Source: a virus. Taken from it: a stretch of DNA of 64,000 nucleotides. The DNA is taken from positions 1 through 64,000 of IMG/VR virus record IMGVR_UViG_3300022752_002834. One strand, given 5' to 3'. The notes below the pieces were generated by a model. The model was not told where the DNA came from and did not search any database. It saw nothing but the letters and a program-made list of their open reading frames with translations. A program made the translations under genes and the position numbers. Numbering within the stretch: position 1 is the stretch's first letter; every line of letters begins with the position of its first letter. This document shows positions 1,839 through 61,152 of this stretch, one piece after another.

Positions 1839-2756
1839 ATGGCTATTTTATCAAAAGATCAAATCAAGACCAATGTACAGAGTGAACTAGCGGATAATAA
1901 CGCTGGTTTAATTTCTGCTTATGATGTTCGCCATAATATGGAGGATATTGTTGATTCTATAAATCAAATAGTTGCTAGCGGCGACTTTGAATCAACCAAT
2001 CCATTCGTAAACAATGTAAAATTTTTAAGAAACATCATCGCGCAGTCCGGTATTCAATTTAGTGATACAACTATACAATATACCGCTTATCCCGGCCCCG
2101 GAAGCGTTCAGCACAATTCTCTTGCTGGATTAACAACCGGAGATGTTCATACTCAATACTTGCCACTTGGGGGTGTTAGAGTTATGACAAACAATCTTGG
2201 TCTTGGTAGCAACTGGATTAATTCTAGCGGAAATTCTCAAATCAGTAGCAGTAATAATAGGGGCATTAGATTTCAATACGCATCTTCTACTCAAGAAAAT
2301 GTAATTATTGGTAACAAGTCTACTGTTGTATTTGAAACAGATAGCTCAAAAATGAATACCGCTAAAGGTGTTGCTAAAGCTTGGATTAGCTTTGATGCCA
2401 GTGGTGTTTCGCACGTTCCAGCAGTGCGAGACTCATATAACATAACCCGGTTAGAAAAGATAGAAGTAGGTAAGTTTAGAATAGTATTTACATCCGGTAC
2501 TCTTAAAAATAACGATTACGTCGCTATCGGCACAAGTAATTCAAGAACAACAGCCGCAAGCAAAGAAGACTTCGACATCAATACCGTTGGCATTGTTGCT
2601 AGATCTGGCGACGATACATCATTATTAAGAAGTTTAACTTTCTGCATACTTAATGATGCTGGTAATTATGTTGATGCACAGATCAATGATCTTGTTGTCT
2701 ATGGTCTTGGCGTTGGCGAATCTAGCGGAGTGCCACCAACAGTAGTAGTACTATAA
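1839..2756 (+). CDS. Fibre/collar-like virion protein
   Basis: HNSLAGLTTGDVHTQY motif and a C-terminal AKAWISFD...SYNITRLEK..VGKFRIVF domain, both typical of phage fibre proteins. Confidence 0.6.
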   Translation: MAILSKDQIKTNVQSELADNNAGLISAYDVRHNMEDIVDSINQIVASGDFESTNPFVNNVKFLRNIIAQSGIQFSDTTIQYTAYPGPGSVQHNSLAGLTTGDVHTQYLPLGGVRVMTNNLGLGSNWINSSGNSQISSSNNRGIRFQYASSTQENVIIGNKSTVVFETDSSKMNTAKGVAKAWISFDASGVSHVPAVRDSYNITRLEKIEVGKFRIVFTSGTLKNNDYVAIGTSNSRTTAASKEDFDINTVGIVARSGDDTSLLRSLTFCILNDAGNYVDAQINDLVVYGLGVGESSGVPPTVVVL

Positions 2757-2768
2757 TTGGAGTAAAAA

Positions 2769-4055
2769 ATGCTAAATATCTACGATAGAATAAAAGAAAC
2801 AAGTTATACTATTGGAACTGGCAACATTGTCCTCAATGGGGCTGTTGCTAGCTTTAGCACATTTGACTCCGTATATGACAATGGCGATAATTTATTTTAT
2901 GCAGTCACTGATGGTGTTTTCTATGAAGTTGGATCTGGCGTTTTTGCTACTGGTATAGAAGACTCTATTAAAAGATTTCCATTTAGAAGCAGTAATAGCA
3001 ATGCTGTGGTGAATTTTGGCGAAGGCTTAAAAGAAGTATTTGCCACATACCCCGCAACACATTCTGTATTTAATGGATCTGGATTACATACATATTCTGT
3101 CCCACAAGAAAGCGGAGTTGCATTTTGGGCTTCTGATCACATTATAAACTATGATAGTAGTCTCTTATGGGATAGATACAATAAAAGATTGGGCATATTA
3201 AAAAATCCTCCTCAGTACGCAATAGACATCGGCGGTAGAGCCACTCAGTCTATTATAAGATCATCTGGTATACTAACTGGATCATCTGGTATATTTTTTC
3301 CATCTGGAAACAATGGAGACTCTTCTTATTTAGGAGGAAGACAATTAGCTCATTATGAACCAAATGTTCTTAACTCTACAACCGGTAGCAATCAAGTGTT
3401 AGAACTAAGCGGAGTAGCTAAGAATAATATACTCTTTAAAAAGCAAAATGCTGGATTAGTATTTGCTGGCCCAGCTAGTGGATGCACACCACCTTGTTCT
3501 CCAGACTATCCATCATTTAGACCACTATTAATTGAAGATATTCAAGATGTAGATATTTCAGTAGTCAATAACGGCAGTGGCTTAGTTTTCGATCAAAAGT
3601 TAGGCGTAAATACATCTCGCTTAGATGGAAATTTATCATCTTACACCAATCAATTTAACCCACTAACAAGTGGAAATTGGCTTAAAGCATCATATTTAGC
3701 ATCTGGTTTATATGGAGGCGCTGTAACACTCATAGATACAGTTGCTACTAATAACTCTGGTAGATTTGGCTATTCATTATTCACAACATCTTCTGGAACA
3801 AATTTTAACATCGGTGTTAGCAATATCAATGGAACAGTTTCTAATGCATTGGTAGTAAATACAAAATTTAATCCATCTAGCGTTTCTGGTTCTGCTTTAG
3901 AATTTTATGGAAATACCATGAGGGTCACATATCCTAGAACACCAGCTTCTGGAAACGCTGCTGGTAATCAAGGTGATATCTGTTGGGATAGTGGTTATTT
4001 ATATGTATGCATCAGTACGAATTCTTGGAAAAGATCTGCTTTATCTTCTTGGTAA
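2769..4055 (+). CDS. Fibre-like virion protein
   Basis: N-terminal DRIKETSYTIGTGNIVLNGAV..F..F and C-terminal TPASGNAAGNQGDICWDSGYLYVC...NSWKR..LSSW, both recurrent phage fibre modules. Ser/Gly/Asn-rich. Confidence 0.65.
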   Translation: MLNIYDRIKETSYTIGTGNIVLNGAVASFSTFDSVYDNGDNLFYAVTDGVFYEVGSGVFATGIEDSIKRFPFRSSNSNAVVNFGEGLKEVFATYPATHSVFNGSGLHTYSVPQESGVAFWASDHIINYDSSLLWDRYNKRLGILKNPPQYAIDIGGRATQSIIRSSGILTGSSGIFFPSGNNGDSSYLGGRQLAHYEPNVLNSTTGSNQVLELSGVAKNNILFKKQNAGLVFAGPASGCTPPCSPDYPSFRPLLIEDIQDVDISVVNNGSGLVFDQKLGVNTSRLDGNLSSYTNQFNPLTSGNWLKASYLASGLYGGAVTLIDTVATNNSGRFGYSLFTTSSGTNFNIGVSNINGTVSNALVVNTKFNPSSVSGSALEFYGNTMRVTYPRTPASGNAAGNQGDICWDSGYLYVCISTNSWKRSALSSW

Positions 4056-4066
4056 TAAGGTGATTT

Positions 4067-4549: not shown

Positions 4550-5181
4550 TGACTCTCTCTATTAATATAGTAGACACCGAAAAACAAATAGAACAAAATA
4601 TTAATGCGGCCATAGCGGATGCTATTAACGATATAATATCAAGAAATTTAAAGAGTATAGAAACTTCAGTAAAATCTTTGATACCTTCTTGGATATTATC
4701 ACAACCAGAAATGGTATCACTACAATCGACAGACCCATCATCTTTAGCTGGACAATTCGGTATTCAAGGATCGGTTAGCTTAATAGTAAATAATATAGTT
4801 CAAGCTGTTGCAAATGCTACAAATATAAATTTCGTTAAGTATACTAAGAAACTAAAGGGCGGATTAGAATTACAATTTCAACCAACAGATTTTAATAACC
4901 TATTATCTTTACCAGATGGTCATACTAGATATCGCGGTGGAGACTTGCACTGGTTAGATTGGTTACTTAAAAGAGGCGATAACATTATTGTGGTTAATTA
5001 TCAGTATAATCCAAAAACCGGATTAGGTAGATCTGGTTTAGGAAATATGATAGGGGGTGGATCATTTAGAGTGCCACCACAATTTTCTGGCACAGAATCT
5101 GATAACTTTATTACAAGAGCGTTTATAGGATCAAATCAAGAGCAGCAAATATCTGATTTAATACAAAGGGCGCTTACATGA
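4549..5181 (+). CDS. Putative neck/tail-completion protein
   Basis: Likely start is ATG 4549, overlapping the upstream TAA (track start 4528). LHWLDWLL and NFITRA motifs; lies between stopper and terminator. Confidence 0.45.
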   Translation: MTLSINIVDTEKQIEQNINAAIADAINDIISRNLKSIETSVKSLIPSWILSQPEMVSLQSTDPSSLAGQFGIQGSVSLIVNNIVQAVANATNINFVKYTKKLKGGLELQFQPTDFNNLLSLPDGHTRYRGGDLHWLDWLLKRGDNIIVVNYQYNPKTGLGRSGLGNMIGGGSFRVPPQFSGTESDNFITRAFIGSNQEQQISDLIQRALT

Positions 5182-6152
5182 CAGATTATCTAAATTTAAA
5201 AGGTTTTGATAGCATATCCGACAATACTCTCGGAAACGAGATACAAGATAATCTAGTCGAATTTTTAGATTGGGCCTTACTACAAAAGGGCAACTATCAA
5301 AATGTTACATTAGATGAATTAGCCCCAAATGGTCAAGATTATAGCAAACTAAGACCATCATCCAATCCGCACTACCCTAGCGGTTTAGCTTGGGAAGGAT
5401 TTAGAAAAAATTGGGTTTGGCAAAGTGGTGTATCGTATAATCCAGCCCCGATGGTCGGCACAAATCCAGCTATTCCCGGAATATCTGGTATTTATGTAAA
5501 TGATGTATTTTATGCGTCTAGTACGTCTGGCACGTATGCCCATAAAGTAGACTACTATAATGGACGGGTCATATTTAATAGCCCAGTGTCCAGTGGAAAT
5601 ACCGTTCAAGCAGAATATAGCTATAAATATATTAATATTATATACGCCAATAGCTTACCGTGGCTAAGAGAAATACAGTATAGGACTCTAGATTTTCCAA
5701 CATCGTTTAATATCGATGGTAAAGGCGATTTTAATCTTCCAGCAGAAAATAGGATACAATTACCAGCAATAGCCATAGAAGTTGTACCAAAACGAAGTCT
5801 TAGAGGATATCAACTTGGTGGTGGTCAGTTTGTTGATACAGACATACTTTTTCATTGTTTAGCAGAAGATGAGTTTACCAGAAACAAATTAGTAGATATT
5901 ATATCTCTACAAAATGAGAAAACCATCTATATGTTCAACAGTAATTCTATAGCAAATAGTGGCGATTTTCCGCTAGACTACAAAGGTATTCCGGTTTCTG
6001 GAGCATTAAGATATCCAGATTTAGTGCTAAAACATTTTAGAGGTAAAGTACGGTTAAAAAATTCGATTGTCCAAGGTATGGACCTAGTTAATACCAACTT
6101 TTATGCTGGTATAGTTAGAATGACAGTCGAAACTATAGAAGAAAACATATAA
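5178..6152 (+). CDS. Putative tail terminator/neck protein
   Basis: QLPAIAIE...GYQLGGG motif, immediately upstream of the tail tube gene. Confidence 0.5.
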   Translation: MTDYLNLKGFDSISDNTLGNEIQDNLVEFLDWALLQKGNYQNVTLDELAPNGQDYSKLRPSSNPHYPSGLAWEGFRKNWVWQSGVSYNPAPMVGTNPAIPGISGIYVNDVFYASSTSGTYAHKVDYYNGRVIFNSPVSSGNTVQAEYSYKYINIIYANSLPWLREIQYRTLDFPTSFNIDGKGDFNLPAENRIQLPAIAIEVVPKRSLRGYQLGGGQFVDTDILFHCLAEDEFTRNKLVDIISLQNEKTIYMFNSNSIANSGDFPLDYKGIPVSGALRYPDLVLKHFRGKVRLKNSIVQGMDLVNTNFYAGIVRMTVETIEENI

Positions 6153-6164
6153 TTTCGTGTATAT
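6149..6164 (+). promoter_or_regulatory. Putative late promoter ATAATTTCGTGTATAT
   Basis: 16-nt exact match to 38922..38937. Both precede genes with a strong AAGGAG RBS. Confidence 0.65.
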
Positions 6165-6200: not shown

Positions 6201-7280
6201 ATGGCCGCTAATAATAGAATTTTTTATGCTTGCCAAGCAGTAGCTATAGGTAGATACCAAGTTGGCGGATCTGCGCCGGGAGCTACACCAGCTGAACTGC
6301 TAAAATCGGTTCACGGCGTTCAAAGCGTTGGTATCAATACAAGTTTTAATCTTGAACAAGCTTTCGAATTAGGTCAGATTTCTATTTATGAAAATATTGA
6401 AGGCTTACCAGACATTGAAGTAACAATAGAAAAAGTATTAGACGGCTATCCATTAATATACCACATGGCAACCAGTGGTGTAATAGAAGTCACCCCATCA
6501 ACAAATAGCTTGGTCGCAAGAGCAAAGCAAAGATGCAATGTTGCTCTTGGTATTTTTAGCGATGAAAAAGAAACAGTAAGTGGCGTTGCTCCAGTAGAAG
6601 TCTTAATGAGTGGTATGTATGTTAGCTCATTAAGTTACACCTTACCAGTTGATGGAAATGCTAAAGAATCAGTAACATTAGTTGGAAATTCTAAAGGCTG
6701 GTTTACAAGCGCCGGAGCTATCACAAATTCTTGGACTAATAACGTCGCGCTAGCACAAGCTCTAAACTTTAATAATGACTCTCCTATAGCAGTTGGTGGT
6801 ATTCAAAGACGAGAAGACGTTATGATGGCGAATTCTATATTACCCATATCAATTTATGGCGTTACACAATCAGAAACTGCTGGAAATAATTGGGATAATG
6901 TTAAACTAAGACCAAAAGCTCATATTCAAAATATTACTATAAGTACTGATCTTGGTCGTGAAGATATTTTAGAATTAGGACATAAAGAGCCATATTATAG
7001 AAGTGCTACATTCCCAGTAGAAGTAACTAGTGAGTTTGAGGTTATCGCTGTTTCTGGTGACTTTATAAACGCCTATGCTAATGGTGATAATACATCAACT
7101 CAAAAAATCCTAATTGAATTAAGAGATGGTACTACTTTTGATCTTGGTGATGAAAATAGATTATCATCTGTTAACTATACTGGCGGTGATGCTGGCGGTG
7201 GAAATGTTAGTATAACATATAGTTTTTCAACTTATAACGACTTAACAATACTGCCCCCATCTAACTTTGTTACACCATAG
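6201..7280 (+). CDS. Major tail tube protein
   Basis: VHGVQSVGINTSFNLEQAFELGQ and an internal repeat IQNITISTDLGREDILELG (duplicated tube fold). Own promoter motif and strong RBS; upstream of chaperones and TMP. Confidence 0.7.
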   Translation: MAANNRIFYACQAVAIGRYQVGGSAPGATPAELLKSVHGVQSVGINTSFNLEQAFELGQISIYENIEGLPDIEVTIEKVLDGYPLIYHMATSGVIEVTPSTNSLVARAKQRCNVALGIFSDEKETVSGVAPVEVLMSGMYVSSLSYTLPVDGNAKESVTLVGNSKGWFTSAGAITNSWTNNVALAQALNFNNDSPIAVGGIQRREDVMMANSILPISIYGVTQSETAGNNWDNVKLRPKAHIQNITISTDLGREDILELGHKEPYYRSATFPVEVTSEFEVIAVSGDFINAYANGDNTSTQKILIELRDGTTFDLGDENRLSSVNYTGGDAGGGNVSITYSFSTYNDLTILPPSNFVTP

Positions 7281-9628: not shown

Positions 9629-12600
9629 ATGTCAAGATTTGTACTAACCGCACAACTACAACTTCAAGCACCAAACAATGTAGCTCAAGTCGTTCGCCAA
9701 ATACAGAGCCAGCTAAATAACGTAAACGTTAATGTGCAGGTTCAAGGATCGGCCCAAGCTCAACGTCAACTGCAACAAGTCACGGCCCAAACGCAAGCAG
9801 CAACAACCGCTGCTGATCGTATGGGTCGTGCTTTTGCTGTTTCTATTCGTAGGTTTGCTGCTTTCTCTATTGCCACCAGAGCGGTCGGTCTTTTTACATC
9901 AACATTATCTGATGCTATAAAGTCAGCTATTGATTTTGAAAGAGAGATGGTGCGTGTTAGTCAGGTTACTGGTCAAAGTATAGGGAATTTAAAATTTCTT
10001 ACCAAGGCTATTACTGATTTGTCAACAGGTCTTGGCGTTTCTTCTAAAGATTTACTAAATACTGGACAGTTATTATTACAAGCTGGTATTAGTGCAAAAG
10101 ATACTGAAGTTGCGTTAAAAACACTAGCCAAAGCAGCACTTGCTCCTAACTTTGATAGTTTAAGCGAAACAACAGAAGGTGCTATTGCTATTCTTGCTCA
10201 GTTCCAAGAAGGCGTTGGAGCTTTAGAAAAGCAACTTGGTGCTATTAATGCTGTTGCTGGTGCGTTTGCGGTAGAAGCTGGTGACTTAATTGACGTTATT
10301 CGTCGCGCTGGTGGTGTGTTTAAATCATCGGGTGGCGATCTTAATGAACTTATTGCGTTGTTTACGAGTGTGCGAGCCACAACGCGCGAAAGTGCTGAAA
10401 GTATTGGTACTGGCTTGCGTACTATTTTTACTCGTATTCAGCGCCCTAAAACAATCGAATTCTTAAAACAGTTTGGTGTGGAACTTGTTGACTTAGAGGG
10501 TAAATTCGTTGGTCCATTCGAAGCAGTTAAAAGATTGAGTGCTGCTTTATCTGGATTGGGTGAAGGCGATATTACGTTTATCAGAATTGCTGAAGAACTT
10601 GGTGGGTTCCGACAAATTGGTAAAGTATTACCATTGCTACAACAGTTTAGCACAGCACAAGCCGCACTTAATGTTGCTAATAAGGCTGGTAATAGTCTAA
10701 CTCAAGATGCTGCTACCGCACAGCAAGCACTTGCTATTAGAATTCTTAAAGTAAAAGAAGAATTCTTAGCCTTAGTAAGAAGTATGACTGAAACTAGCAC
10801 TTTCCAAATAATGGCAAATACTGCTTTATCATTAGCTTCTGCATTAATTAAGATTGGTGAAGCTATTAAACCACTACTTCCATTATTGGCCGCAGTCGCA
10901 GCGGTCAATTTTGCTAAAGGTATTTCTGGTTTTGCTGGCGGATTAATGAGAGGTATGCAGTCAGGACGCACATACAGTACCGGTGGTAAGGTTCATCACT
11001 TTGCAAGAGGTGGTATGGTTCCCGGTACTGGTAATCGTGATACTGTTCCTGCGATGTTGCAACCCGGTGAGTTTGTTATCAAAAAGAGTAGTGTTAATAA
11101 ACTTGGTGCTAGTAATTTGGCGGCTATGAATGAGAATCGCTTTGCGCTAGGAGGTCAAGCAAGAAAATTCGGTATCGCTTCATTATTACCTATGGATAAT
11201 CCGCCAAAAGAAGAAAAAGCAACAATACCAATATCAAATATAAGACAATTTTTATCTAAAAAAGCTGGTGGTAAAAATATTGTCAAGAAAGGTAATTTAG
11301 AAAATGTTGATACTACAATTAGAGGAATACTTGGTCTTAAAGGTCAACAGTCGGTAAAAACTTCCGCAATAGCAGAAACAATGTCTAGGCAAGACGTTGC
11401 ATCAAAAATTGAAAAAAGAGTAGAATTATCTATTCAAAAGCTTATAGATAACTCAGCTTCTGCATTAGGTAAATCCTTATCTATTAATGTGGAACGCAAA
11501 GCCGATAATTCTATAGTTAAATCAGTTGGTTCTGCTTCTACAATAGGCTCTGTTTTTGAAGGTGCGCTCGCTATGTTGGGCGCTCCTATGGATACCGGAA
11601 AAGGCGAACAAGATCCGATTGATTTTCCAAGAGGATTGGGACCAAATTTTGCTAGTGCATTTCAGTCTTTGGTTGGTATACCAGTTGACGCAAAAAGAAC
11701 TGCTTCTAAAAAAATATTAAAAGACACAGCCAATAGAAAAGCCGCAGCATATTTAGCAAACGCAGTTTATAGTGATCCTAGATGGCAAGCTTTATCAAAT
11801 TCTTCTACACAAAATCTTGATCCAAATAAATCATATACTTTACAACAACTAGGACTTAGTGCCAAAGACGCTAAAAGTAGAGGATATAGAGGGGTAGGCG
11901 GATTATACAAATTAGAATCCCAAAATAAAAATCTGGGTGGAATTATACAAAAATTTGCCAAAGGCGGTATGGCCCAAGCTCCTCTTATTGATGATATTGT
12001 AAACGCCACTGGAACAATGATGCCTCGCCCAAGTTCAGCAATTGCAGCATTGATAAGTGCTGGTGGTGGAGCAATTGACATAGATAGAACTATTAAACGT
12101 ACTATAGGTGATAAAGCTTATGGTATGGCTAAAACTTCGGGCCAACAATCAGCAGCATTAGATAAATATTTCCGCGATCCACAAGCAAGATTGCGTGATG
12201 TAACATCGGCGCCACTAACAACACTTGGAAGAGAATTGCAAGCAGCAATAAAATCTGGACAATTACAACCCGGTAAACTTTCTATTATAAGCAAATCTCA
12301 AAGAGTTCCGGGGGTTGCGGAGTATCTTAACAGATTATTTGGTATTCCTTTAGCGAATATGATTTTCACTGGCGGCGGTAGCAAACAGCCCGCAATGGAT
12401 GCTTTAAGAAATAAAGGTCCAAGAGCTAGTAGAGTCGCCAAATTTGCTGCTGGTGGCGGGGTTGGAACTGATACTGTTCCTGCGTTATTAACTCCCGGTG
12501 AGTTTGTTATTAATAGATCTTCTGCTCAAAGTATCGGTTATGGTAATCTTAATCGCATGAATAAGGTTGGTAGATATGCTAAAGGTGGGGTTGTTCAGCG

Positions 12601-38925: not shown

Positions 38926-38937
38926 TTTCGTGTATAT
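38922..38937 (+). promoter_or_regulatory. Putative late promoter ATAATTTCGTGTATAT
   Basis: Exact 16-nt match to 6149..6164. Confidence 0.65.
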
Positions 38938-42100: not shown

Positions 42101-42105
42101 AATCC

Positions 42106-48197: not shown

Positions 48198-48198
48198 A

Positions 48199-51433: not shown

Positions 51434-53088
51434 TTTATATCAAAAGCCTCCGCTCTTTTTTGTTCCCAAAAGTTTCTTCTATTACATAGAGCCAACATAG
51501 AATTATACGCCGCGTTAAAATCGAATGGATTTCGTGCCATTTGTCCATCAAACGCTGCTGAACTTTCATTAAAATACATGCCACCAGTAACCGATGTGGT
51601 AGTTTTATACATCAAGTCTCTTATTAGTCTTGCTTCAAGATAAGAATTTAATCTTTCTGGTTCGCACAATACATTGGTGATTAACCACTTGGCTAACTTA
51701 TCGTGTTCTATGTTTGGTGGTAAATTATCTGGTTTTTGTTCTGGTCTTCGTATTCTTGGTGGAGATTTCCAAGTAAATTCTTCTGGCACAATCTCTACGC
51801 TATCAAAATAATCTTCCCAAGCCTTACCGCTTTTATTCCACTGGTAGTGCTTTTCAAAAGCTTCTCTTGTGGTTCTACCATAAGCTTGTCTTTCTTCTTC
51901 AGATAACTTAAAGAAATTTACCATTAAATCAGAAGCAAGGTCATTGTCTGGAACTGCTCTTAAACAGCCCGTTTCTAATTCTTTGTACAAAGCTTTTGGC
52001 TTAACTGGAATTCCTCCAAGGTTTCTAACAACGCTTTCCATTGCGGAATAATCGGTTGCCATTACAGGCACACCACACGCTGCTGCTTCGACTTGTGGTA
52101 ATCCAAACCCTTCACAGTTTGCATATTGAACATAAAGATCAAACATATTCATGATCTTAGAAAGATCTTCATATTCTGCACCATTCTTTACGTTTGATAG
52201 TGTAGCACCATATTTATTTGTATATGGAGACTGCGTGACTGCCCCTCTAAATAAGGATACGAATGGCTTACCGGTCTGTCCACAAATATATGTAAAATAT
52301 ACCTTAGATGACAACCCGTGTTGTTGTAATAATTCTGGTATATCCCAACCCAAATCGGGATAACTTGTATGGCAATATAAGAAATACTTGTGTGGGTTAT
52401 CTACTTTGGATAGAAGCAACTTGAATGCTTCAAATAAATCTGGGTATAATTTTCTTCTTTGATTTCTCATGACTGTTCCTACTATGAAACAATCTTCATC
52501 TAAACCCATAGATACTCTTAGTTCTTTTTTGTTTTGTGGTTTATAAGCCGCATGTGCTGACGGTGGAGATATTCCCAAATAATTTATTTTGCCGCCAGAC
52601 TGAGACTGAAGAACATCACCCGCCCATTCAGAATATGTAAGACAAGCATCTGCTGATTGATAAGTTGCTACCCACTGTCTAGCCTGTGGTCTAGCATCTA
52701 CCGTTGGCATAATGCACCACTTATAGAATGGCCTAAATGGAGAACGTTCTTCAAAGTCCAACATCCAAAAGTCTCTGATATCGCAAACAACATCTGGTTT
52801 AAAATCTAAGCACACAGGCTCAAACATTAGTTCACCAAATGCAGCAATGGGATGTGATTGATACTGCTTCTTTTCTTCTTCCGAAGATTGCTGATTAGGA
52901 ACAACGCCATAAAACTTCCAAGGAATATTTTCTGCTCTTGGATCGTTTTTTTCGCCATAACAAGCTAATTCAGCCAACTCATATTTACCAGTACTGTATA
53001 AATAATTGAGTATTTCTCTAGTATAGGTTGCGTAGCCAGTATTTAAAAATGTGGCTTCGCTACAGAACAGTATTCTTTTTTTTCTCAT
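51430..53088 (-). CDS. GT4 glycosyltransferase
   Basis: TGYA, RNQRRK, DLYVQYANCEGFGLPQVEAAACGVPV. Confidence 0.9.
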   Translation of the reverse strand: MRKKRILFCSEATFLNTGYATYTREILNYLYSTGKYELAELACYGEKNDPRAENIPWKFYGVVPNQQSSEEEKKQYQSHPIAAFGELMFEPVCLDFKPDVVCDIRDFWMLDFEERSPFRPFYKWCIMPTVDARPQARQWVATYQSADACLTYSEWAGDVLQSQSGGKINYLGISPPSAHAAYKPQNKKELRVSMGLDEDCFIVGTVMRNQRRKLYPDLFEAFKLLLSKVDNPHKYFLYCHTSYPDLGWDIPELLQQHGLSSKVYFTYICGQTGKPFVSLFRGAVTQSPYTNKYGATLSNVKNGAEYEDLSKIMNMFDLYVQYANCEGFGLPQVEAAACGVPVMATDYSAMESVVRNLGGIPVKPKALYKELETGCLRAVPDNDLASDLMVNFFKLSEEERQAYGRTTREAFEKHYQWNKSGKAWEDYFDSVEIVPEEFTWKSPPRIRRPEQKPDNLPPNIEHDKLAKWLITNVLCEPERLNSYLEARLIRDLMYKTTTSVTGGMYFNESSAAFDGQMARNPFDFNAAYNSMLALCNRRNFWEQKRAEAFDIK

Positions 53089-53458: not shown

Positions 53459-55036
53459 TCAAGTTTCATGAATTTGTTCAATGATAAAAGACGAGTCATT
53501 ATTATTGACGTATCCACAAAAAATTAGATTATTCCCTTCATAAAGAATGTACTTGTATTTCTCTTTAATTTTGGGGAAAATTATAACACTATCTAAGGTT
53601 GCTGTTTCGTCCTCTATTGTTAAAAAGGACATCATTTGTCCCTTAGATTCACCCTTCTTTATTTTGTAATCCGCAACACGCTGCACGTTTGCTACTATGC
53701 ACAAATTCTTTCCCTTCTTACCGTTCACAACATCTTTGCATGTTGTATTAGCGGCAGATGTATCAGATGTTTCAACTTTTGTCATACTAACTGGACAACC
53801 CAAAAACTTTACTTCTTGATCTATTAACCAAGATGGATCATCTTTCAAGTCATATGGTGGACTATTAAGCAACTGAATTTCATTAAGAATAACTTGTTTT
53901 CTGTCAGCTTTGCTTGTGCCTCCACCCTCTTTTTTTGTTGGTGCTAAGTCGGTTAGAGCCTCTACCAGACTACTCCACTGTTTTTGCTTGTAATTATTTA
54001 CTAACCAAGTATGTTCTGATTTTGTTAAAGATTTGAAGATCTCATAATCATACAAGGCTTTATTTCTTGAAATGCTATCTTTGAATCCACGGAAAAACCC
54101 TATAGATGCTAAAGCTTTAAATGATGCAGAATTTACGCTTGGACTTAGAAATAATAGTATTTCTACCCAAGTCAACTCTTTTGTTTTTTTATTCAAATCC
54201 TTCTTGACTATTTCAAGGCTCTCCACAAAGCTATCACCGGTTTTACCAGTTAATGATTTGATATCTTTTATACCAAAGTAAATTGTATCATTTTTGATAT
54301 TGAATTTATCGTGATAATTTACTATGCTTGGGGTTTTGACCTTAATATCAAATAGCTTTGCTTCTGATATTAGTTCATAAATTTCTTGGTGTGGATCTTG
54401 CTTCTCGTTTGCATAATACAAATAAGACAAGAAGAATTCTTTAGTATTATGAGCTTTATAATATGCACTCCAGTATGAACATACAGCATACGACACGCTG
54501 TGAGACTTATTGAATGCATATCTAGATGACTTTTCTATCCATCCGAATATCTGTTCCGCTTCTTCTTTAGATACTGTTCCAACGCGTTCAGCACCCGCTA
54601 TAAATGATTTCTTGACCTCGTTCATGAGATCAGCCTTTTTCTTTCCAATGGCCTTACGAAGAACGTCAGCCTCTTGTAGATTGAAACCAGCGATCTTTTG
54701 GGCAATACGCATGGACTGTTCTTGATACACAAGAACGCCATAGGTTGACTTCAATATTTCTTCTAATGCTGGATGTAAATAAGTAACTTCTTCCCGACCA
54801 TGTTTTCTATCAACATAGTGCTGTGTCATGCTTTTGCCGTCAACATATGCCTTCAATGTTCCCGGCCTAATGATAGCAATAAGAGCAGACAATTCTTCTA
54901 TGTTTGTTGGTGCTAATTTCTTAGCCCAAGATTTGCCTAGATTACTTTCAAGCTGAAAGATGCCCTTGGTTTTTCCTTCTGCAAATAATTGCCAAGTTAA
55001 CTTATCATTATAGTTCATCATTTTGTAAATACTCAA
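53459..55036 (-). CDS. dnaE: DNA polymerase III alpha, C-terminal half (fingers/HhH/OB)
   Basis: GIFQLES, IRPG, TYGVLVYQEQ, ADVLRKAIGKK, YAFNKSHS and an OB fold (MSFLTIED). Likely ATG at 55021 or 55018. Confidence 0.92.
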   Translation of the reverse strand: MSIYKMMNYNDKLTWQLFAEGKTKGIFQLESNLGKSWAKKLAPTNIEELSALIAIIRPGTLKAYVDGKSMTQHYVDRKHGREEVTYLHPALEEILKSTYGVLVYQEQSMRIAQKIAGFNLQEADVLRKAIGKKKADLMNEVKKSFIAGAERVGTVSKEEAEQIFGWIEKSSRYAFNKSHSVSYAVCSYWSAYYKAHNTKEFFLSYLYYANEKQDPHQEIYELISEAKLFDIKVKTPSIVNYHDKFNIKNDTIYFGIKDIKSLTGKTGDSFVESLEIVKKDLNKKTKELTWVEILLFLSPSVNSASFKALASIGFFRGFKDSISRNKALYDYEIFKSLTKSEHTWLVNNYKQKQWSSLVEALTDLAPTKKEGGGTSKADRKQVILNEIQLLNSPPYDLKDDPSWLIDQEVKFLGCPVSMTKVETSDTSAANTTCKDVVNGKKGKNLCIVANVQRVADYKIKKGESKGQMMSFLTIEDETATLDSVIIFPKIKEKYKYILYEGNNLIFCGYVNNNDSSFIIEQIHET

Positions 55037-55382
55037 TAGCCTTCTGCAATATTACTCTATTGTCCTTAAACGCACCTATTCCCATGTTGCAATTGTGGCA
55101 CAACCATCCTCTGAATTTATTAGTATCATGATTATGATCTAATACCCATCTTGTGCTTTTATTACCTCCACCAGATGATATTTGTTCTTCATTCCTATTA
55201 CATATGGGACACTTATAATTTTCTGGTGGATTACCGTGTTCTTTTCGTAGTTCTTTTCTTTGTTTGCTCAATAAATTGTTGCATCTTTTGCACTCTGGTC
55301 TGAGATAATTACTAGCACTATGTTTACTAAACTCAGAAATTGGCAAATCTTGTTTACATTTATTGCACTTTTTATTTGACAT
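55008..55382 (-). CDS. Endonuclease VII-family (His-Me) endonuclease, probably homing
   Basis: CNKC...CKRC zinc finger; CPIC...LDHNH...RGWLCHNCNMGIG. Likely start 55382 (track start 55412). Confidence 0.85.
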   Translation of the reverse strand: MSNKKCNKCKQDLPISEFSKHSASNYLRPECKRCNNLLSKQRKELRKEHGNPPENYKCPICNRNEEQISSGGGNKSTRWVLDHNHDTNKFRGWLCHNCNMGIGAFKDNRVILQKAIEYLQNDEL

Positions 55383-56052
55383 ACAAGCCGCCGTTAGCAA
55401 AAGCTTTATCAAAATTCATGTTTTGGTAGATAGCTCTATGAGTTTTCATGAGCTTAATGAATATGTTAGCTTCGTCTTTTACGTCTTGCAATGCGTCGTG
55501 AGCATTTTCTTTACTAAGTCCCATTCTTTCCCTTAATGCATCCATGCTTATAGATTTTACAGATGGATCGCTTTCTGTCCAAGCAAAAATATTATCCATT
55601 ATATCGAACTTATAAACTTTACTGAATAGTTTTTGCTGCCGACGATCCTTATCCCAAGGACCAAATTGTTCACATAGTCTGTTTATAATTATCATATCGA
55701 ATGATATAATGTTAAAACCAACTGGGATCGGATTAAAAAATGCATCGCCCTTCCAATTATACTGTAAAACAAATTTAGAAAATTTATCCCACACAGACTT
55801 TAGTGCCGGTGCTTTTTCAAGAGATTCTCTAGTTTTGTTGGTGATCTTTAATGCTTCGTCCTCTACTGGATCTAAACCAGCGGCTATAGCCTTTTCTTCA
55901 TCAAAGATTGGCTGTATCTCACTGTTAAATTGACCCTTGACAGAAAAGTTTCTTCCATCTAATGCCAATGCTGCGATCTGCGTTGGTTGAGTCTTGTGTG
56001 GATTGCGTGATCCCGTTTCAAAATCGAACACGACAAAATCTCTTGTAGCCAT
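55372..56052 (-). CDS. DEDDh 3'-5' exonuclease (DnaQ/epsilon-like)
   Basis: VFDFETG, GFNIISFD and AHDALQDV motifs. Confidence 0.9.
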   Translation of the reverse strand: MATRDFVVFDFETGSRNPHKTQPTQIAALALDGRNFSVKGQFNSEIQPIFDEEKAIAAGLDPVEDEALKITNKTRESLEKAPALKSVWDKFSKFVLQYNWKGDAFFNPIPVGFNIISFDMIIINRLCEQFGPWDKDRRQQKLFSKVYKFDIMDNIFAWTESDPSVKSISMDALRERMGLSKENAHDALQDVKDEANIFIKLMKTHRAIYQNMNFDKAFANGGLYVK

Positions 56053-56057
56053 ATTGT

Positions 56058-56675
56058 TTATCCTATCTTTCTATCCAAATGTGTTAATGTTTGATATATA
56101 TCTGATTTTTGATTTTGCAATACAATGGCCTCGCAAAAATCTAAAAACTCTCTCTCGCCCATATTTCCCTTCATAATATTAACTCTTTTATGCACCCATT
56201 GAACATTTCCCTCTATATAAGGTAGCGACGGATCAATTCTGTCTAGCGATGCGTTAGCCTGTCCCATTCTATGTTCTAGATTGTTTCTTGAGAAGAACAA
56301 AAGTAATCCTGTGTATTTACATTTTCTATCTTGACTTAAAAATAATTCCCATATATATTCATTGGTTACATGGTAATCAATTTTCCTTTTTCTTGCTCCA
56401 GCCTTAATAGAAGATAAAAAAGCCCCCTGCATCTCTTTGTGTCCCGTATATTTAGGATTTTCTTCCCCACTAAGATAACATTTCTTTTTTCTAAATTTTA
56501 CGCCATTAGATTTTAATATCTTCTGAATTTTCTTTGGGTATGAATTCAACTCTATTGCTATCGCTCTTGGGCTTTTACCATTCTTATATTGTTCTATTAT
56601 ATATGTATGGTCTAAGTCTTGTGCAAATTTTTTATCCGGTAAGAATCTTCCCTTATCGTTTCTTTTTAGTGTCAT
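56058..56675 (-). CDS. HNH-like (His-Me) endonuclease with N-terminal HTH, probably homing
   Basis: CKYTG...ASLDRIDP...YIEGNVQWVHKRVNIMK. ATG 56675 has an AAGGAG RBS; the track's GTG start at 56717 coincides with the GTGTATA motif. Confidence 0.8.
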   Translation of the reverse strand: MTLKRNDKGRFLPDKKFAQDLDHTYIIEQYKNGKSPRAIAIELNSYPKKIQKILKSNGVKFRKKKCYLSGEENPKYTGHKEMQGAFLSSIKAGARKRKIDYHVTNEYIWELFLSQDRKCKYTGLLLFFSRNNLEHRMGQANASLDRIDPSLPYIEGNVQWVHKRVNIMKGNMGEREFLDFCEAIVLQNQKSDIYQTLTHLDRKIG

Positions 56676-56710
56676 TTTATTCTCCTTGTTTAAGACCTGT
56701 CTCAATGTCT

Positions 56711-56723
56711 TATACACGGAAAT
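56711..56723 (-). promoter_or_regulatory. Putative late promoter ATTTCCGTGTATA
   Basis: Resembles ATTTCGTGTATA at 6152 and 38925; lies between the dnaE-N stop and the HNH RBS. Confidence 0.55.
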
Positions 56724-56726
56724 ATT

Positions 56727-58355
56727 TTAAAACTGGTTAATATGTTGTTTATCTTTGATATACATAATTTTATCAAGCAAATTGATTCCTAGAATATCAA
56801 ATTTCACATGACCAAGAGCCTCTAAATCTGACATTTCTAATCCGGCTATCTTTTCGCCCGATCCCCTTTGATTCACCATTGGACATACATTACTTAATTT
56901 ATTTGCTGAAATAACAATACCAGCAGCGTGTTTTCCTTGGGTTTTAAAAGTACCCTCTATATCTATTGCTTGTTGAAAGTATTCAGCATACTCACCATCT
57001 AGTCTTCCATCGTCATTAATATAACAAAAATCTCTTAACTCATCAGCATTGTTGATTAACGCCCAGCGTATGATAGATCTTTCGTCATCTTCCATGTCTG
57101 CCAACTGGTCAGAAATTTCTGCTTCATTAGGTATTGATTTAGTTATAGCATTCATTTCTGCAAAAGAACAGGCTTCATGTATTCTCAATACTTCCTTGAT
57201 AGCACTTCTTCCTTGCAATCTACCAAATGTGATCATTTGACTAACATGATCTTTTCCATACTTATTTTTTAAATAGGCTATAACTTCATCCCTTTTGTTA
57301 CCCGGAACGTCCATATCTATATCTGGTAGCGATATATGATCTTGTGTATTTCTTCCAGCGTTGTAGAATCTTGCAAATAGTAAATCATATTCTAGAGGAT
57401 CTATCTTAGTAACACCAATAAGATATGAGATTAGACATCCCGCAGCACTTCCTCTTCCCGGTCCAGACAACCAACCCATATCATTTACATATTTGATAAT
57501 GTCTTGAACTATCAAGAAATATCCGAATAGATTAGCACTCTTAATAATATCAAACTCTTCTTTGAATCTATCTAGGTATTTTTGCTTATCTTCTTCTGTC
57601 GATACTTTATCCTGCGATATTAAGAGTGTTCTCCATCCTTCTCTGCATAGTTCTTTTAGATATTCTTCTTCTGACTGATTGTTAGGACATTGAAACTTTG
57701 GAAGAATCGGTTTACTCAAGATATTATAGTCTTCGCATTGGTTATATATTGATTCTAGTTCTGCTGTATTTAAGTTCTTAGACTCGTCTTTGTTTAAAAC
57801 ATAAAAGTTATCTTGCATAAAGTACACAAGCTTATCCATATGTTCTTGAGGATATTTTGAATCTACGCTTACACCGCCAAGACGATCTGGTTTTATTGTT
57901 TTTTGAATCTTAGTTAGCGTTGTCTTCATGTCTGAACACAATAAAATTCTATGCAGTTTAGCGTCTTTCTTTTCTGCATAATAACTGTGTGGAATATCTT
58001 TTGATGATGAAGAACTAAGTTTGATCAAATTATTTCTAGACAAGGTTTTATCCAAAAAATCTTTTGCAAGTTCTCCATTTTCATCCAAAGACGAAACTAA
58101 AGAAATTAGATCGTTCCAACCACTCTTATTCTTTGCAAAAAGAGTAAAATTATCAAATGAGCATCCTATGATTGGCTTGATGCCAACCTTTTTACATGCT
58201 TGATAAAACGATACAGCTCCAGATATTGTCTTATAATCGCAAATACCACAAGCTACATATCCGTTGTCCTTGCACTTAGCAGCAAGCTCTTCTGGCTTAG
58301 AAAAACCACGCAATAGACTATAATGTGTAAAATTTTTCAATGGAAACCAAGACAT
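56727..58355 (-). CDS. dnaE: DNA polymerase III alpha, N-terminal half (degenerate PHP + palm/thumb)
   Basis: THYSLL, IKPIIG, GPGRGSAAG, FARF, PDIDMD, GKHAAG and KFDILG, then a stop. Likely start 58355 with a GAGG RBS. Confidence 0.92.
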   Translation of the reverse strand: MSWFPLKNFTHYSLLRGFSKPEELAAKCKDNGYVACGICDYKTISGAVSFYQACKKVGIKPIIGCSFDNFTLFAKNKSGWNDLISLVSSLDENGELAKDFLDKTLSRNNLIKLSSSSSKDIPHSYYAEKKDAKLHRILLCSDMKTTLTKIQKTIKPDRLGGVSVDSKYPQEHMDKLVYFMQDNFYVLNKDESKNLNTAELESIYNQCEDYNILSKPILPKFQCPNNQSEEEYLKELCREGWRTLLISQDKVSTEEDKQKYLDRFKEEFDIIKSANLFGYFLIVQDIIKYVNDMGWLSGPGRGSAAGCLISYLIGVTKIDPLEYDLLFARFYNAGRNTQDHISLPDIDMDVPGNKRDEVIAYLKNKYGKDHVSQMITFGRLQGRSAIKEVLRIHEACSFAEMNAITKSIPNEAEISDQLADMEDDERSIIRWALINNADELRDFCYINDDGRLDGEYAEYFQQAIDIEGTFKTQGKHAAGIVISANKLSNVCPMVNQRGSGEKIAGLEMSDLEALGHVKFDILGINLLDKIMYIKDKQHINQF

Positions 58356-58388
58356 ATATTTTCCTCGCAACTAGAACTCAATCAATCT

Positions 58389-59181: not shown

Positions 59182-59182
59182 A

Positions 59183-59254
59183 TTACACCTGTAATGATAA
59201 AAAGTTGTCTAGACCCATTTGTTCAATTAGTTTATTCATTGATTTATGTAACAT
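59183..59254 (-). CDS. Small ORF MLHKSMNKLIEQMGLDNFLSLQV (23 aa), absent from the ORF track
   Basis: GGAG RBS 6 nt upstream. Fills the gap, with its stop 1 nt before the next ATG. Confidence 0.45.
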   Translation of the reverse strand: MLHKSMNKLIEQMGLDNFLSLQV

Positions 59255-59276
59255 TGTTTTCTCCATTAAAAGTAAT

Positions 59277-60290
59277 TTACCAAGATTTACAAGCCCAATA
59301 ACGAGCCTTCCATTTTGGGCCGGGATTATCGCAGTTGTGTCTAGCCCTAAAGCTCTTTCTTCTTTCTGGAATGTTCTTTTTGATTTTCATATTTGGGTCA
59401 CCAAATCTTACTATAACAACATTGCCACTCTCATTCTTAACATATACGGCGAACTTCTTAGGACCATCAGAAGTTCTAAATGGTTTATTGAGCGTTACCT
59501 TACGTCCTTGATATTCAGAAGCTTCACCAACATATGTTAATCGCCTACCATCTTTTTCGTAAATTCCTTGACGTTTATAATTATATACTTCTCCAGTTTT
59601 TGGATCTTCGTATTTGAAGCCAGCATCAGACTCAGGCTCTTCTATCTCTAATTCTGATGGCTCTTCAACTTCTTCTGGAGTATATTCGTCTTCATACTTA
59701 CCGGGTTCGTAGTACTTTACAAAGTCATAAACATTCTGAATGTATATTTCGGCTTTAGAAATCATGTCCTTTGTCCAATCTTGGAATTCTACAGACAAAG
59801 ACATTCCCTTTAATCTCATTATGATTTCCATCAACTGATCATGCATTTTTTGGATTTGTTCTAATGCCATTTCATCGCCATCATCAGACTGAGCTTTTTT
59901 CCAAGCTTCTTTACTTGGTCTGTCTGGATCTCCCGGCTTGGCTGGCTTATAATTCTTACCTTCGCGTTCTCTTTTCTTTCTAATATTATCCCATAGTCCC
60001 GGCTTCTCACCAGCAACGTCCCACTCTTCTGTTTCTTCGCCAAAATCCTCGTACTCTGCTTCAGAAGGAACATAAAAATTGTCTTCTGTTAGTTCTTCGG
60101 CGTAGCCAGCTTCCATTTGTAATTCAAAATCAGCAGATTCTACACAATCACAATCTGCCGTGGCTTGACCAATACATATAGCAACTCTTTGCTTTTGATC
60201 TGGATAATCCTTTTTCATTGTTTCATTACCCATGCAGCGGGATACGAAAGCGTCCTTTTGTTCATCTTTTCGTCTATTAGGAATTGGCAT
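59277..60290 (-). CDS. Multi-module acidic/basic protein, possible head-internal protein
   Basis: Modules MPIP...FVSRCM..YPDQKQRVAIC, GLWDNIRKKR and EYQGRKVTLNKP...VRFGDPNM...RRKSFRARHNC...RYWAC, joined by Glu-rich linkers. Confidence 0.65.
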   Translation of the reverse strand: MPIPNRRKDEQKDAFVSRCMGNETMKKDYPDQKQRVAICIGQATADCDCVESADFELQMEAGYAEELTEDNFYVPSEAEYEDFGEETEEWDVAGEKPGLWDNIRKKREREGKNYKPAKPGDPDRPSKEAWKKAQSDDGDEMALEQIQKMHDQLMEIIMRLKGMSLSVEFQDWTKDMISKAEIYIQNVYDFVKYYEPGKYEDEYTPEEVEEPSELEIEEPESDAGFKYEDPKTGEVYNYKRQGIYEKDGRRLTYVGEASEYQGRKVTLNKPFRTSDGPKKFAVYVKNESGNVVIVRFGDPNMKIKKNIPERRKSFRARHNCDNPGPKWKARYWACKSW

Positions 60291-61152
60291 GATGTTCTCC
60301 ACTGTTAAAGATTAATGTCTTAGCTTCTTCGAATATATTGTTCATACTCCATTCTGGAATTCTACTTTGAAAATGATTCTTTATATCTTGTATCATTTGG
60401 TGATTTGGATCTTGTGTTATTTCCATCCACCCAATAAAATAGTTCCAGATTCTATCTTCTAATACTAGTCGATACTTTACGCCATTTGGGCGACTAAATC
60501 TATGATTCCATTTCAATTGTGGCAAGCATATATTTTTACCACCCCATTGTCTAAATTTTTCTGCTATATAGCCCTCTTCTCCACCGAATCCTTTAAAATT
60601 TGTATTTATGCCCTTCCAAGCAGATTTTTTAAAAGATAACAAACCCATTCCCTGCATTGGAATTTCAAAAGGCTTACATGCATTGTAAGATTGGGCGTCT
60701 GTAGCCCATATTCCATACATATCTCCACGCCAAACTGGATCAAAGTGCGTAGAATAATGCTTTAAATCATCATACCACAATGGACCTTGAACTAAGTCTT
60801 TGCACGGGTAATGATGCTCAAAATAGGATAAGAGATTATTGATACCATTATCTTGAATAAGAACATGGCAATCTATTATAAGTACATACTCCCCGTCAGA
60901 ATACTCCACAATATCATACTTATTGAAAGATGACTGTCTCTTTTTATATGGTATGTATTTTCCACGTACAGCATTTTCTACAAACTTTTTGCACTCTTTA
61001 CCATGTTGTCCATCTGGATTGCTATCTAATACTATAAACTCAACAGCATCTTTATCCGCACATATTGGGTGATACATTCTCAATGATTGTATGGAGAAAA
61101 ATACTCCATCATAATCATCATAAGTCGCCATGCCTATTGTCAATTTTTTCAT
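60277..61152 (-). CDS. GT-A glycosyltransferase with DxH and GGEE motifs (polypeptide HexNAc-transferase-like)
   Basis: LTIGMATY, LIIDCHVL, PFEIPMQGMGL, GFGGEEGYI, WNHRF. Confidence 0.75.
   Translation of the reverse strand: MKKLTIGMATYDDYDGVFFSIQSLRMYHPICADKDAVEFIVLDSNPDGQHGKECKKFVENAVRGKYIPYKKRQSSFNKYDIVEYSDGEYVLIIDCHVLIQDNGINNLLSYFEHHYPCKDLVQGPLWYDDLKHYSTHFDPVWRGDMYGIWATDAQSYNACKPFEIPMQGMGLLSFKKSAWKGINTNFKGFGGEEGYIAEKFRQWGGKNICLPQLKWNHRFSRPNGVKYRLVLEDRIWNYFIGWMEITQDPNHQMIQDIKNHFQSRIPEWSMNNIFEEAKTLIFNSGEHHANS

Follow-up and report, generated by a model that had tools for sequence, protein, structure and literature searches.

A conserved sugar island and Ser-Gly-rich tail proteins in an abundant lineage of aquatic phages: a putative virion O-glycosylation system

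The DNA analysed in this study, hereafter called the window, comprises the first 64 kb of the 118,291-bp virus record IMGVR_UViG_3300022752_002834 (G000; approximately 74% complete according to CheckV). It carries two traits that are the subject of this report: an excess of the dipeptide Ser-Gly (SG) in several neck and tail proteins, and an island of sugar-related genes located at positions 41660-53088. The window has a GC content of approximately 35%, and no tRNA genes were found in it. The + strand of positions 1-39690 encodes the neck and tail module, and the - strand of positions 39790-64000 encodes the sugar island together with a replication module, i.e. single-stranded DNA-binding protein (SSB), a split DnaE polymerase, an RNase T-type exonuclease, homing-type endonucleases, a PD-(D/E)XK exonuclease, a dNMP kinase and a primase. 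Encoded in the remainder of the contig are DnaB, a RecA/UvsX-like protein, ribonucleotide reductase (RNR), dUTPase, dCMP deaminase, ThyX, rIIA/B, DNA ligase, UvdE and a fourth glycosyltransferase of the GT4 family. This gene set (rIIA/B, own replisome, RNR) is of the lytic-phage type.

The source of the window is a large tailed phage from an uncultured and very abundant aquatic lineage, whose complete genomes are 127-174 kb in size. No match was obtained when 21 kb of window DNA were compared by megablast with GenBank phages, or when the 324-amino-acid (aa) tail terminator protein described below was compared by tblastn with 50,697 GenBank phage records; DnaE matches among GenBank phages did not exceed 37% identity. 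The terminator protein is nevertheless encoded at 58 IMG/VR loci (36-97% identity), and the 552-aa GT4 protein of the sugar island (51430-53088) has 3542 metagenome homologues at E<=1e-5.

Each of the 48 window proteins was compared with 1000 composition-preserving shuffles of its own sequence, and an SG excess was called at p<=0.01. Four proteins, all encoded on the + strand, passed this threshold. The first (1839-2756; 305 aa; SG 7 against 3.0 expected, p=0.01) is a neck/collar fibre-like protein, whose C-terminal part matches PHROG 11355 (tail fibre) and whose N-terminus (approximately 50 residues) is similar to that of an SG-rich structural protein of 1068 aa encoded by the complete relative G003. 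The second (2769-4055; 428 aa) is a fibre protein matching PHROG 17312 (tail protein). It is the small protein richest in SG, with 16 pairs against 6.0 expected, a number reached in none of the 1000 shuffles. Both genes are positioned upstream of the neck genes. The third protein (5178-6152; 324 aa; SG 7 against 1.9) was recognized by AlphaFold modelling (mean predicted local distance difference test score, pLDDT, 85) and Foldseek as a tail terminator, matching T5 p142, the DT57C neck, T4 gp15 and lambda gpU with E values of 2e-4 to 5e-3. It contains an inserted beta-rich domain (approximately residues 40-160), in which five of its seven SG pairs are located. The fourth is a giant tail protein of 3757 aa (16764-28037), encoded directly after the tape measure gene, with FG-GAP repeats toward its C-terminus. 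It contains 74 SG pairs against 30.4 expected (z 9.1), and the observed number equals or exceeds the expected one in all 15 full 250-residue bins. BLASTP revealed no internal repeats in this protein, and a BLASTP comparison of 17 large structural proteins gave the aforementioned N-terminal match of about 50 residues plus one weak hit, so repeats or a shared domain were rejected as the source of the SG pairs.

When the four proteins were pooled, SG (104 against 41.5 expected, z=11.0) ranked first among the 400 dipeptides, the second-ranked one being represented by 3 counts. Other pairs in the same pool were not enriched (NG 25 against 31.5, DG 16 against 23.2, TG 18 against 22.1, GS with an observed-to-expected ratio, O/E, of 1.0, and likewise PG, GG, KG and EG). 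The tape measure protein (9629-16759, + strand; 2376 aa; PF10145, E 3e-24), which served as a comparator, contains 22 SG pairs against 19.0 (z 0.8). No enrichment was detected in the large distal tail proteins encoded at 30173-35308 (7 against 10.6), 35308-38925 (10 against 9.0) and 28039-29790 (7 against 4.8), and 30 non-structural window proteins were flat when pooled (25 against 28.6). The preliminary description of this DNA had proposed that SG is over-represented in several presumed exterior proteins and not in the tape measure protein, and these counts bear it out more strongly than was claimed. The length of the tape measure protein and of the adjoining 3757-aa protein implies an unusually long tail with a very large tail-tip structure.

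The SG pairs of the enriched set are encoded by 14 codon pairs that use both Ser codon boxes; selection therefore acts on the amino acids, and an origin in a DNA motif is ruled out. As a separate observation, the Ser codons TCA and TCG almost never precede a Gly codon in the + strand structural genes (TCA does so once in 120 cases in the SG-rich set and once in 131 in the others), a sign that A/G-GG may be avoided where the two codons meet.

The residues flanking the pairs in the enriched set are not random. Ala or Pro is 2.4-fold over-represented at position -1, the Gly is followed by hydrophobic residues (1.4-fold) or Asn (1.7-fold), and charged residues are reduced to 0.59 of background at -1 and 0.69 at +1, giving the preferred context [A/P]-S-G-[V/I/L/N]. 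These preferences were not seen around the SGs of the remaining proteins. The preliminary description had drawn an analogy with the animal proteoglycans, which are xylosylated at Ser-Gly, need acidic neighbours and often have the form SGxG. Both cases share Ser followed by Gly as the (here presumed) acceptor dipeptide. The analogy does not hold beyond that: in the phage proteins charged residues are depleted beside SG and hydrophobic residues or Asn follow the Gly, neither an acidic context nor an SGxG pattern was found around the pairs, and no xylosyltransferase-like enzyme was found.

The SG excess is a property of the lineage. Homologues of the SG-rich families were drawn from up to 57 related phage contigs, and O/E values of 2.75 (1839-2756; n=34; 300 against 109.2), 2.56 (2769-4055; n=29; 553 against 216.2) and 2.45 (5178-6152; n=57; 283 against 115.6) were obtained. 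Seven other core families of the relatives gave values from 0.65 to 1.6. In 99 distinct homologues of the SG-rich families SG occurs 941 times against 362.5 expected, the O/E of the other core families being 1.25. Among highly conserved alignment columns SG is more frequent than each of nine other dipeptides tested, and it is also the most frequent in lineage-specific columns. In the giant protein, 40 of 73 SG pairs (55%) are kept in the G003 orthologue, which is only 46% identical, compared with 21.9% of all dipeptides, 15% of GS and 6% of NG. Two sites of the terminator, S83-G84 and S103-G104, are SG in 39 and 40 of 41 aligned sequences, respectively, and sites 117 and 139 have Ser or Thr followed by Gly. 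G003 has further SG-enriched proteins: a Gp80-like head-fibre protein (9 against 2.6), the 1068-aa structural protein (33 against 14.9), a 1193-aa fibre (39 against 19.7) and a DUF285/LRR protein (11 against 6.2). No enrichment was seen in its tape measure protein or in four further proteins above 1000 aa (1039, 1051, 1087 and 1560 aa). The signal is weaker in G019, the most divergent complete relative (19 against 10.5 in the protein encoded after the tape measure gene, 5 against 1.9 in the terminator).

Outside the lineage the picture is different. Homologues of residues 184-428 of the 2769-4055 protein (31-33% identity, E 1e-20) contain 2 SG pairs against 2.6 expected and keep none of the ten SG positions, mostly lacking Gly there, which rules out a requirement of the fold for SG in these C-terminal 245 residues. 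In eight further phages, a conserved C-terminal motif of the fibre keeps SG at one of 18 aligned positions. As for the general background, the O/E of SG is 1.24 in 72 unrelated IMG/VR open reading frames (ORFs) and 1.41 in 25 structural proteins of lambda, P7, Av-05 and Peetri, so that the lineage set (2.5-2.6) is enriched beyond comparable proteins. Within the SG-rich families, the turn-forming pairs NG and DG fall slightly short of expectation (O/E 0.85 and 0.81, compared with 1.05-1.28 in controls). The SG enrichment, whose persistence after correction for composition had been named as a check of the preliminary description, survives shuffling and is conserved, applies only where Gly follows Ser, and does not reflect a demand of the fold. 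The SG pairs are a real, lineage-specific and strongly conserved feature of a subset of the fibre and tail proteins.

The second trait, the sugar island, consists of 14 ORFs on the - strand, running from 53088 down to 41660 and beginning 3 bp after the SSB gene; families were assigned by Pfam and NCBIfam profile matches. A conserved core (46594-53088), whose order directly after SSB is kept, opens with three GT4 genes: one of 552 aa (51430-53088; Pfam Glycos_transf_1, 47.6 bits), one at 50315-51433 (38.1 bits) and one of 332 aa (49324-50322; 67.4 bits), all above the PF00534 gathering cut-off of 26.4 bits. The core also includes two small ORFs (142 and 245 aa), a gene for a nucleotidyltransferase-like DUF6564 protein similar to the N-terminal part of GlmU (47445-48197; 25.0 bits, at the cut-off) and a 284-aa ORF conserved in relatives (46594-47448). 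The outer cassette (41660-46597), which differs among relatives, encodes a GT2 (45857-46597; E 1e-6), WecB (44868-45857), a 239-aa protein, a DUF5672 protein (43481-44170; E 1.7e-19), a protein resembling 2-oxoglutarate-dependent oxygenases of the carbohydrate-cluster type (42843-43484; weak, 30.5 bits against a cut-off of 150), an RgpF-like protein (42106-42858; E 4.8e-8) and, at the distal end, a 158-aa protein that is conserved there. WecB matches the non-hydrolysing UDP-GlcNAc 2-epimerases (TIGR00236, 232.1 bits against a cut-off of 210.15), while the hydrolysing NeuC profile TIGR03568 gave merely 60.9 bits (cut-off 235.9). The inventory of the preliminary description, a 13-gene operon, is confirmed for the three GT4s, GT2, DUF5672, RgpF, WecB and the nucleotidyltransferase-like protein and is weak for the oxygenase; the ORFs number 14, and no window gene matched the GT-D-like enzyme listed there, even at E<=1. 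At the same E value five of the 14 island ORFs match no family.

None of the island proteins has a hydrophobic segment (19 residues with a mean hydropathy >=1.6), and no Pfam family of a flippase, a polymerase or a polyprenyl-phosphate transferase was matched by them. The model of the 552-aa GT4 is of mediocre quality (pLDDT 69) and has a generic GT-B fold, aligning to GT4 structures at E of about 1e-10; the top Foldseek match, chlorovirus B736L (3oy2; E 5.8e-11), is level with BshA (6.4e-11) and MshA. A sequence search of the PDB returned nothing for this protein and generic matches alone for the 332-aa GT4. The profile of the 284-aa core protein and that of a 255-aa protein encoded at the distal island border (40889-41656, - strand) gave best E values of 0.03-0.04 against the PDB, and a search of the ESM Atlas returned unnamed viral clusters only. 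The border protein has an N-terminal part resembling a helix-turn-helix and a Vsr/DUF559-like nuclease domain (PF04480, E 4.9e-4); relatives encode proteins 40-71% identical to it in the same place.

The GT4 family is present in all 20 large relatives, including all eight that are at least 90% complete. The island was read in nine relatives and one near-identical contig. In all nine, the genes for the 552-aa GT4, the second GT4, the DUF6564 protein and the 284-aa protein follow SSB in identical order, although the DUF6564 and 284-aa genes are not recognizable by BLAST in G019, and the two small core ORFs are not always recognizable in relatives. The 552-aa GT4 is 61-74% identical in eight relatives and 45% in G019; the third GT4 is truncated to 174 aa in G007 and has its full length in the other eight. 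The cassette is mostly swapped for other genes in G010, G011, G013, G014, G017 and G019. The replacements encode nucleoside diphosphate-sugar epimerase/dehydratases, DegT aminotransferases, FdtA, FkbM methyltransferases, a sulfotransferase, GT2, GT47-like and GT-D-like proteins, among them enzymes of deoxy-amino-sugar synthesis, methylation and sulfation. Judged by its genes, the sugar operon is a hallmark of this lineage, composed of a conserved core and a relative-specific cassette. Further sugar-related genes lie elsewhere in these genomes. A GT4 of approximately 355 aa occurs outside the island in most of the 20 relatives; the one in G000 (354 aa; the fourth GT4 of this genome) adjoins a nucleoside 2-deoxyribosyltransferase-like gene and a weakly deaminase-like gene (G000 86665-88663; L002 4665-6663). 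In G003, a GDP-mannose 4,6-dehydratase gene (L096 9966-11054) lies outside the island, near the terminase gene.

It was suggested in the preliminary description that this phage can build a multi-sugar glycan by itself, and the gene content agrees with such a capacity: the island is soluble, has its own nucleotide-sugar enzymes and at least five recognizable transferases, and is conserved across the lineage. Under the reading that we consider best, to which we assign a probability of roughly 0.4, the island glycosylates virion proteins. It would form a self-contained cytoplasmic assembly line, in which activated sugars are made or converted by the phage (WecB would provide UDP-N-acetylmannosamine, and the conserved nucleotidyltransferase-like enzyme may also take part), a core glycan is laid down by the conserved trio of soluble GT4s, and the strain-differing cassette extends and tailors this core. 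The likeliest acceptors would be the phage's own appendages, namely its neck fibres, its giant tail protein, the outward-facing terminator domain and, among relatives, also head fibres, and the particles would acquire a sugar coat varying from strain to strain. The phage's own appendages are favoured because all of the enzymes are soluble, because the constancy of the core throughout a wide lineage points to an acceptor that is likewise constant and encoded by the phage, and because a defined subset of exposed proteins bears a lineage-specific, conserved and Ser-specific signature. We infer that the combination of a fixed core, placed on a fixed acceptor, and a varying outer glycan is easier to reconcile with an acceptor encoded by the phage than with host surfaces, which vary.

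The SG pairs are the best available candidates for the attachment sites, and the more specific proposal would be that phages of this lineage attach O-glycans to conserved Ser-Gly turns of their fibres and of the giant tail protein, with a core built by the GT4s and extended by the strain-specific cassette. We regard this full proposal as rather unlikely, and the same applies to its central element, the identity of the SG serines with the glycan sites, which presumes a link between the pairs and the transferases. Nothing in the sequence ties the island sugars to the SG serines, and the two stand as separate traits. What is directly observed is the gene content and its conservation, the absence of membrane-associated parts and the statistics of SG; these reveal a glycan-building capacity and a special SG signature, with the acceptor, the sequon and the initiating enzyme remaining putative. 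The observations are real and beyond chance, and the interpretation is partly supported.

Several points weigh against it. Mild over-representation of SG is general in phage structural proteins (the O/E values of 1.24-1.41 given above), and phages not known to be glycosylated reach 1.8-2.7 in single proteins with small counts (lambda J, 12 against 6.5; lambda E, 4 against 1.5; P7 sheath, 8 against 3.2). Strong positional conservation and strand-flanking contexts are also expected of a structural turn element. The SG excess and the GT4 core are both present in all 20 large relatives, so there is no island-free relative to serve as a contrast and their co-occurrence is uninformative. Five contigs outside the lineage (L011, L012, L014, L016 and L020) have moderately SG-rich fibres and no GT4 but, being only 9-56% complete, carry little weight. 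The fold of the 552-aa GT4, with its generic GT4 matches, gives no hint of the acceptor, and an inference from it was abandoned. The island begins 3 bp after SSB, lies within the replication module and shares the orientation of this module rather than that of the late genes. According to an excerpt of PMC7029224, similar islands of pelagimyophages have been read as modifying the host O-chain. Finally, the capsid-like protein of G003 (SG 2 against 2.0), the probable tail tube (4 against 2.9) and several large tail proteins show no SG excess, which makes a full SG-keyed glycan shield unlikely; the particle-wide shield envisaged in the preliminary description finds no support.

The most serious rival explanation is that SG is a structural idiom of tight turns and of strand or helix caps, in which Ser precedes a left-handed Gly (e.g. 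a type-I turn with a G1 bulge) in the arrangement [A/P]-S-G-strand. SG may here replace the chemically labile Asn-Gly and Asp-Gly, and the island may act elsewhere or on other sites. Such a role is at least as likely as that of an acceptor, and on balance we incline slightly towards it. In the terminator model six of the seven SG sites lie in coil just ahead of strands and the seventh, S261-G262, ends helix 255-261 as a C-cap; the flanks, with Ala or Pro at -1 and hydrophobic residues at +1 and +3, suit a turn. The very high positional conservation of the pairs, the mild depletion of NG and DG in the same families and the O/E of about 2-2.7 in some proteins of phages without known glycosylation all agree with it. 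A general turn preference does not, however, account fully for the excess, since NG, DG, TG, PG and GS show no enrichment, and the surplus of SG, about 580 pairs, is offset only to a minor part by the deficit of NG and DG, about 90 pairs against plain expectation. Moreover, the homologous domains outside the lineage retain SG at none of ten positions and mostly have no Gly there, this phage also has beta-rich tail proteins without SG enrichment, and the exclusive choice of Ser has no known reason.

Glycosylation of virion proteins must also be weighed against remodelling of the host surface polysaccharide during infection. The island could act, for instance, on undecaprenyl-linked O-units at the inner face of the membrane, blocking superinfection or keeping the progeny off debris, and the SG pairs would be unrelated to it. 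GT-rich hypervariable islands located near tail-fibre genes in pelagimyophages and cyanomyophages have been read in this way, without experiments, in the excerpted text of PMC7029224. The enzyme families encoded (WecB, RgpF, GT2, GT4, DegT, FdtA and FkbM) are those of O-antigen, capsule and teichoic-acid pathways, the hypervariability of the cassette mirrors host O-antigen diversity, the island is oriented like the early/middle replication genes, and peripheral GTs could act on lipid-linked units of the host. What speaks against a host target is the composition of the island and its conservation. The island encodes neither a membrane-spanning or lipid-carrier enzyme nor a flippase or a polymerase, and the membrane-embedded transferase, flippase and polyprenyl-phosphate GT of membrane-bound (Gtr-type) O-antigen modification are all lacking from the island. 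The core is 61-74% identical in eight of nine relatives (45% in G019) whose hosts presumably differ, as would fit a constant phage acceptor, and the gene set, with rIIA/B, an own replisome and RNR, is that of a lytic phage. We consider a host-surface target possible and, on this evidence, improbable.

The third alternative, according to which the island glycosylates phage DNA or nucleotide precursors and so evades restriction, is very improbable. It draws on the position of the island directly after DnaE and SSB with a dNMP kinase nearby, on the further GT4 beside the nucleoside 2-deoxyribosyltransferase-like gene, and on the conserved nuclease at the border, whose profile (six sequences) gave a weak hit (E 0.032) to AbaSI, in the endonuclease domain of this restriction enzyme, which is directed at modified cytosine. 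Phage GTs related to lipopolysaccharide (LPS) and teichoic-acid enzymes can attach mono- to trisaccharides to 5-hydroxymethylcytosine, according to an excerpt of bioRxiv 10.1101/2023.12.21.572611. The supporting chemistry, whether of the T-even or of the MT-5mYOX-GT type (a C5 methyltransferase plus a Tet/JBP oxygenase), is, however, missing from the five genomes searched with the respective profiles (G000 and four complete relatives): the ThyA-family hydroxymethylase PF00303 was found in none (the control matched in 10 of 14 genomes), C5 cytosine methyltransferase PF00145 in none, and the Tet/JBP oxygenase PF12851 in none, the last result being weak as its control matched in no genome. ThyX, dCMP deaminase and dUTPase point to an ordinary thymidine supply, and at least ten sugar-tailoring genes exceed any known DNA glycan, so that DNA, by known chemistry, is an unlikely acceptor.

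The preliminary description had assigned the role of initiating transferase to a separate glycosyltransferase with DxH and GGEE motifs, encoded behind a GTGTATA motif. The gene (60277-61152, - strand) encodes a GT-A-like protein of 291 aa with DCH at residues 94-96 and GGEE at 190-193, so both motifs are present, as is the heptamer; the GT2 match (E 1.3e-4, 22.4 bits) falls below the Pfam cut-off of 23.3, and that to TarP (PDB 6h1j) is weak (E 0.084). The heptamer, located 102 nt upstream of the gene and within the gene before it, shows no excess in the window (8 copies against 9.3 expected) and was rejected as a meaningful signal. The neighbouring genes are concerned with replication and nucleotides (exonuclease, dNMP kinase and primase). 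Homologues occur in 15 of the 20 relatives, four of which carry only divergent copies elsewhere in the genome, and there is none in the other five, including the 100%-complete G013 and G019. In G013 (locus L062) the SG excess persists (11 against 3.2 and 59 against 26.9), as it does in other relatives without the gene; since it is undiminished, the enzyme is not needed for whatever maintains SG. Its proposed role as the necessary initiating transferase was abandoned.

Virion glycosylation as considered here would resemble several known systems in part. Freeman et al. (2023, Cell Host Microbe) reportedly observed O-glycosylation of the virions of mycobacteriophages Che8, Corndog and Myrna, in which capsid and tail-tube subunits are said to be modified by few GT genes. 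The resemblance lies in phage-encoded soluble GTs, which in that case presumably act in the cytoplasm on structural proteins of the phage itself. The window differs in that its lineage has capsid-like and tube proteins without the SG signature, and in its 14-gene island with own sugar-nucleotide enzymes, a conserved core and a variable cassette. Giant viruses (the fibrils of Megavirinae and the capsid glycans of chloroviruses) are likewise said to have glycosylation gene clusters. Shared features are virus-encoded nucleotide-sugar pathways, GTs, methyltransferases and bacterial-type rare sugars varying between clades, and the best Foldseek match of the 552-aa GT4 is B736L of chlorovirus NY-2A (3oy2), although this match is no better than that to a generic GT4 (BshA); the giant viruses are unrelated and infect eukaryotic hosts.

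A mechanism like the one proposed operates in bacteria, where TibC and AAH hyperglycosylate the beta-rich adhesins TibA and AIDA-I in the cytoplasm, at many sites and on Ser only; as far as an excerpt of PMC4358343 goes, TibC modifies Ser-313 of TibA (within NSGG) and not threonines, and the second mapped site is T-S-A-A, SG thus being no strict sequon even there. By analogy, this shows a bacterial precedent for such chemistry. The enzymes are not homologous, ADP-heptose being the donor and a single sugar the product in TibC/AAH, and among the 48 window proteins no match to the GT9 heptosyltransferase family, or to a BAHT-type enzyme, which is a heptosyltransferase-like GT-B protein with an iron finger, was detected at E<=0.01. 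The 'host recognition cluster' of pelagimyophages and cyanomyophages, which are also large aquatic lytic phages, is a hypervariable LPS-type sugar island near fibre genes; those phages are T4-like myoviruses, whereas the lineage described here has a split DnaE replisome, and the excerpt of PMC7029224 mentions no Ser-Gly signature for their islands. An Acinetobacter phage paper (PMC8402811), considered as a further parallel, was set aside, its excerpt being concerned with host glycans. Among the literature matches listed, none describes a sequon for phage protein glycosylation.

Other features of this genome deserve mention. DnaE polymerase is encoded in two genes on the - strand (53459-58370), a PHP and NTPase half (56727-58370) and a half with the finger and helix-hairpin-helix regions (53459-55036), between which the gene of the RNase T-type exonuclease (55372-56052) is located; the split and the exonuclease are kept in relatives. 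The HNH-type (56058-56717) and endonuclease VII (55008-55412) genes of the same region are present in only some relatives and resemble mobile homing endonucleases. At the contig edge (2-1255, + strand) lies an ORF with its start cut off, which encodes a run of approximately 45 glycines followed by a Cys-rich domain; it matches no family and has no homologue among the 58 related loci. The record also carries unusual phage cargo, namely genes of a DUF1501 protein (E 3e-101) and of the UV-damage endonuclease UvdE (G000 107335-108579 and 110407-111324; L003). Finally, TTTCGTGTATA, which is longer than the GTGTATA heptamer discussed above, or a one-mismatch variant of it occurs at window positions 6153-6163 and 38926-38936 and at 97703-97713 and 104515-104525 of G000. 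The sites are intergenic and lie 35-46 nt upstream of three gene starts, including that of the probable tail tube gene (6201-7280), and this sequence may be a phage promoter element.

If the island sugars go onto the particle, very common aquatic phages would have strain-variable glycan coats, which would affect host recognition, sticking to particles or mucus, grazing and decay, and phage-host arms races would gain a second layer of hypervariability. Should SG be a defined acceptor, phage glycoproteins would become predictable from sequence and the island would offer a compact cytoplasmic toolkit for O-glycosylation. Such a system would be a phage counterpart of an LPS core with its O-antigen, built on a sequence-defined motif, and the first sequon-like glycosylation system of a phage. 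If, on the other hand, SG is only structural, the lineage would have an unusual rule of fibre building of its own, one in which a 2.6-fold excess and the retention of 55% of the pairs at 46% identity would call for an explanation.

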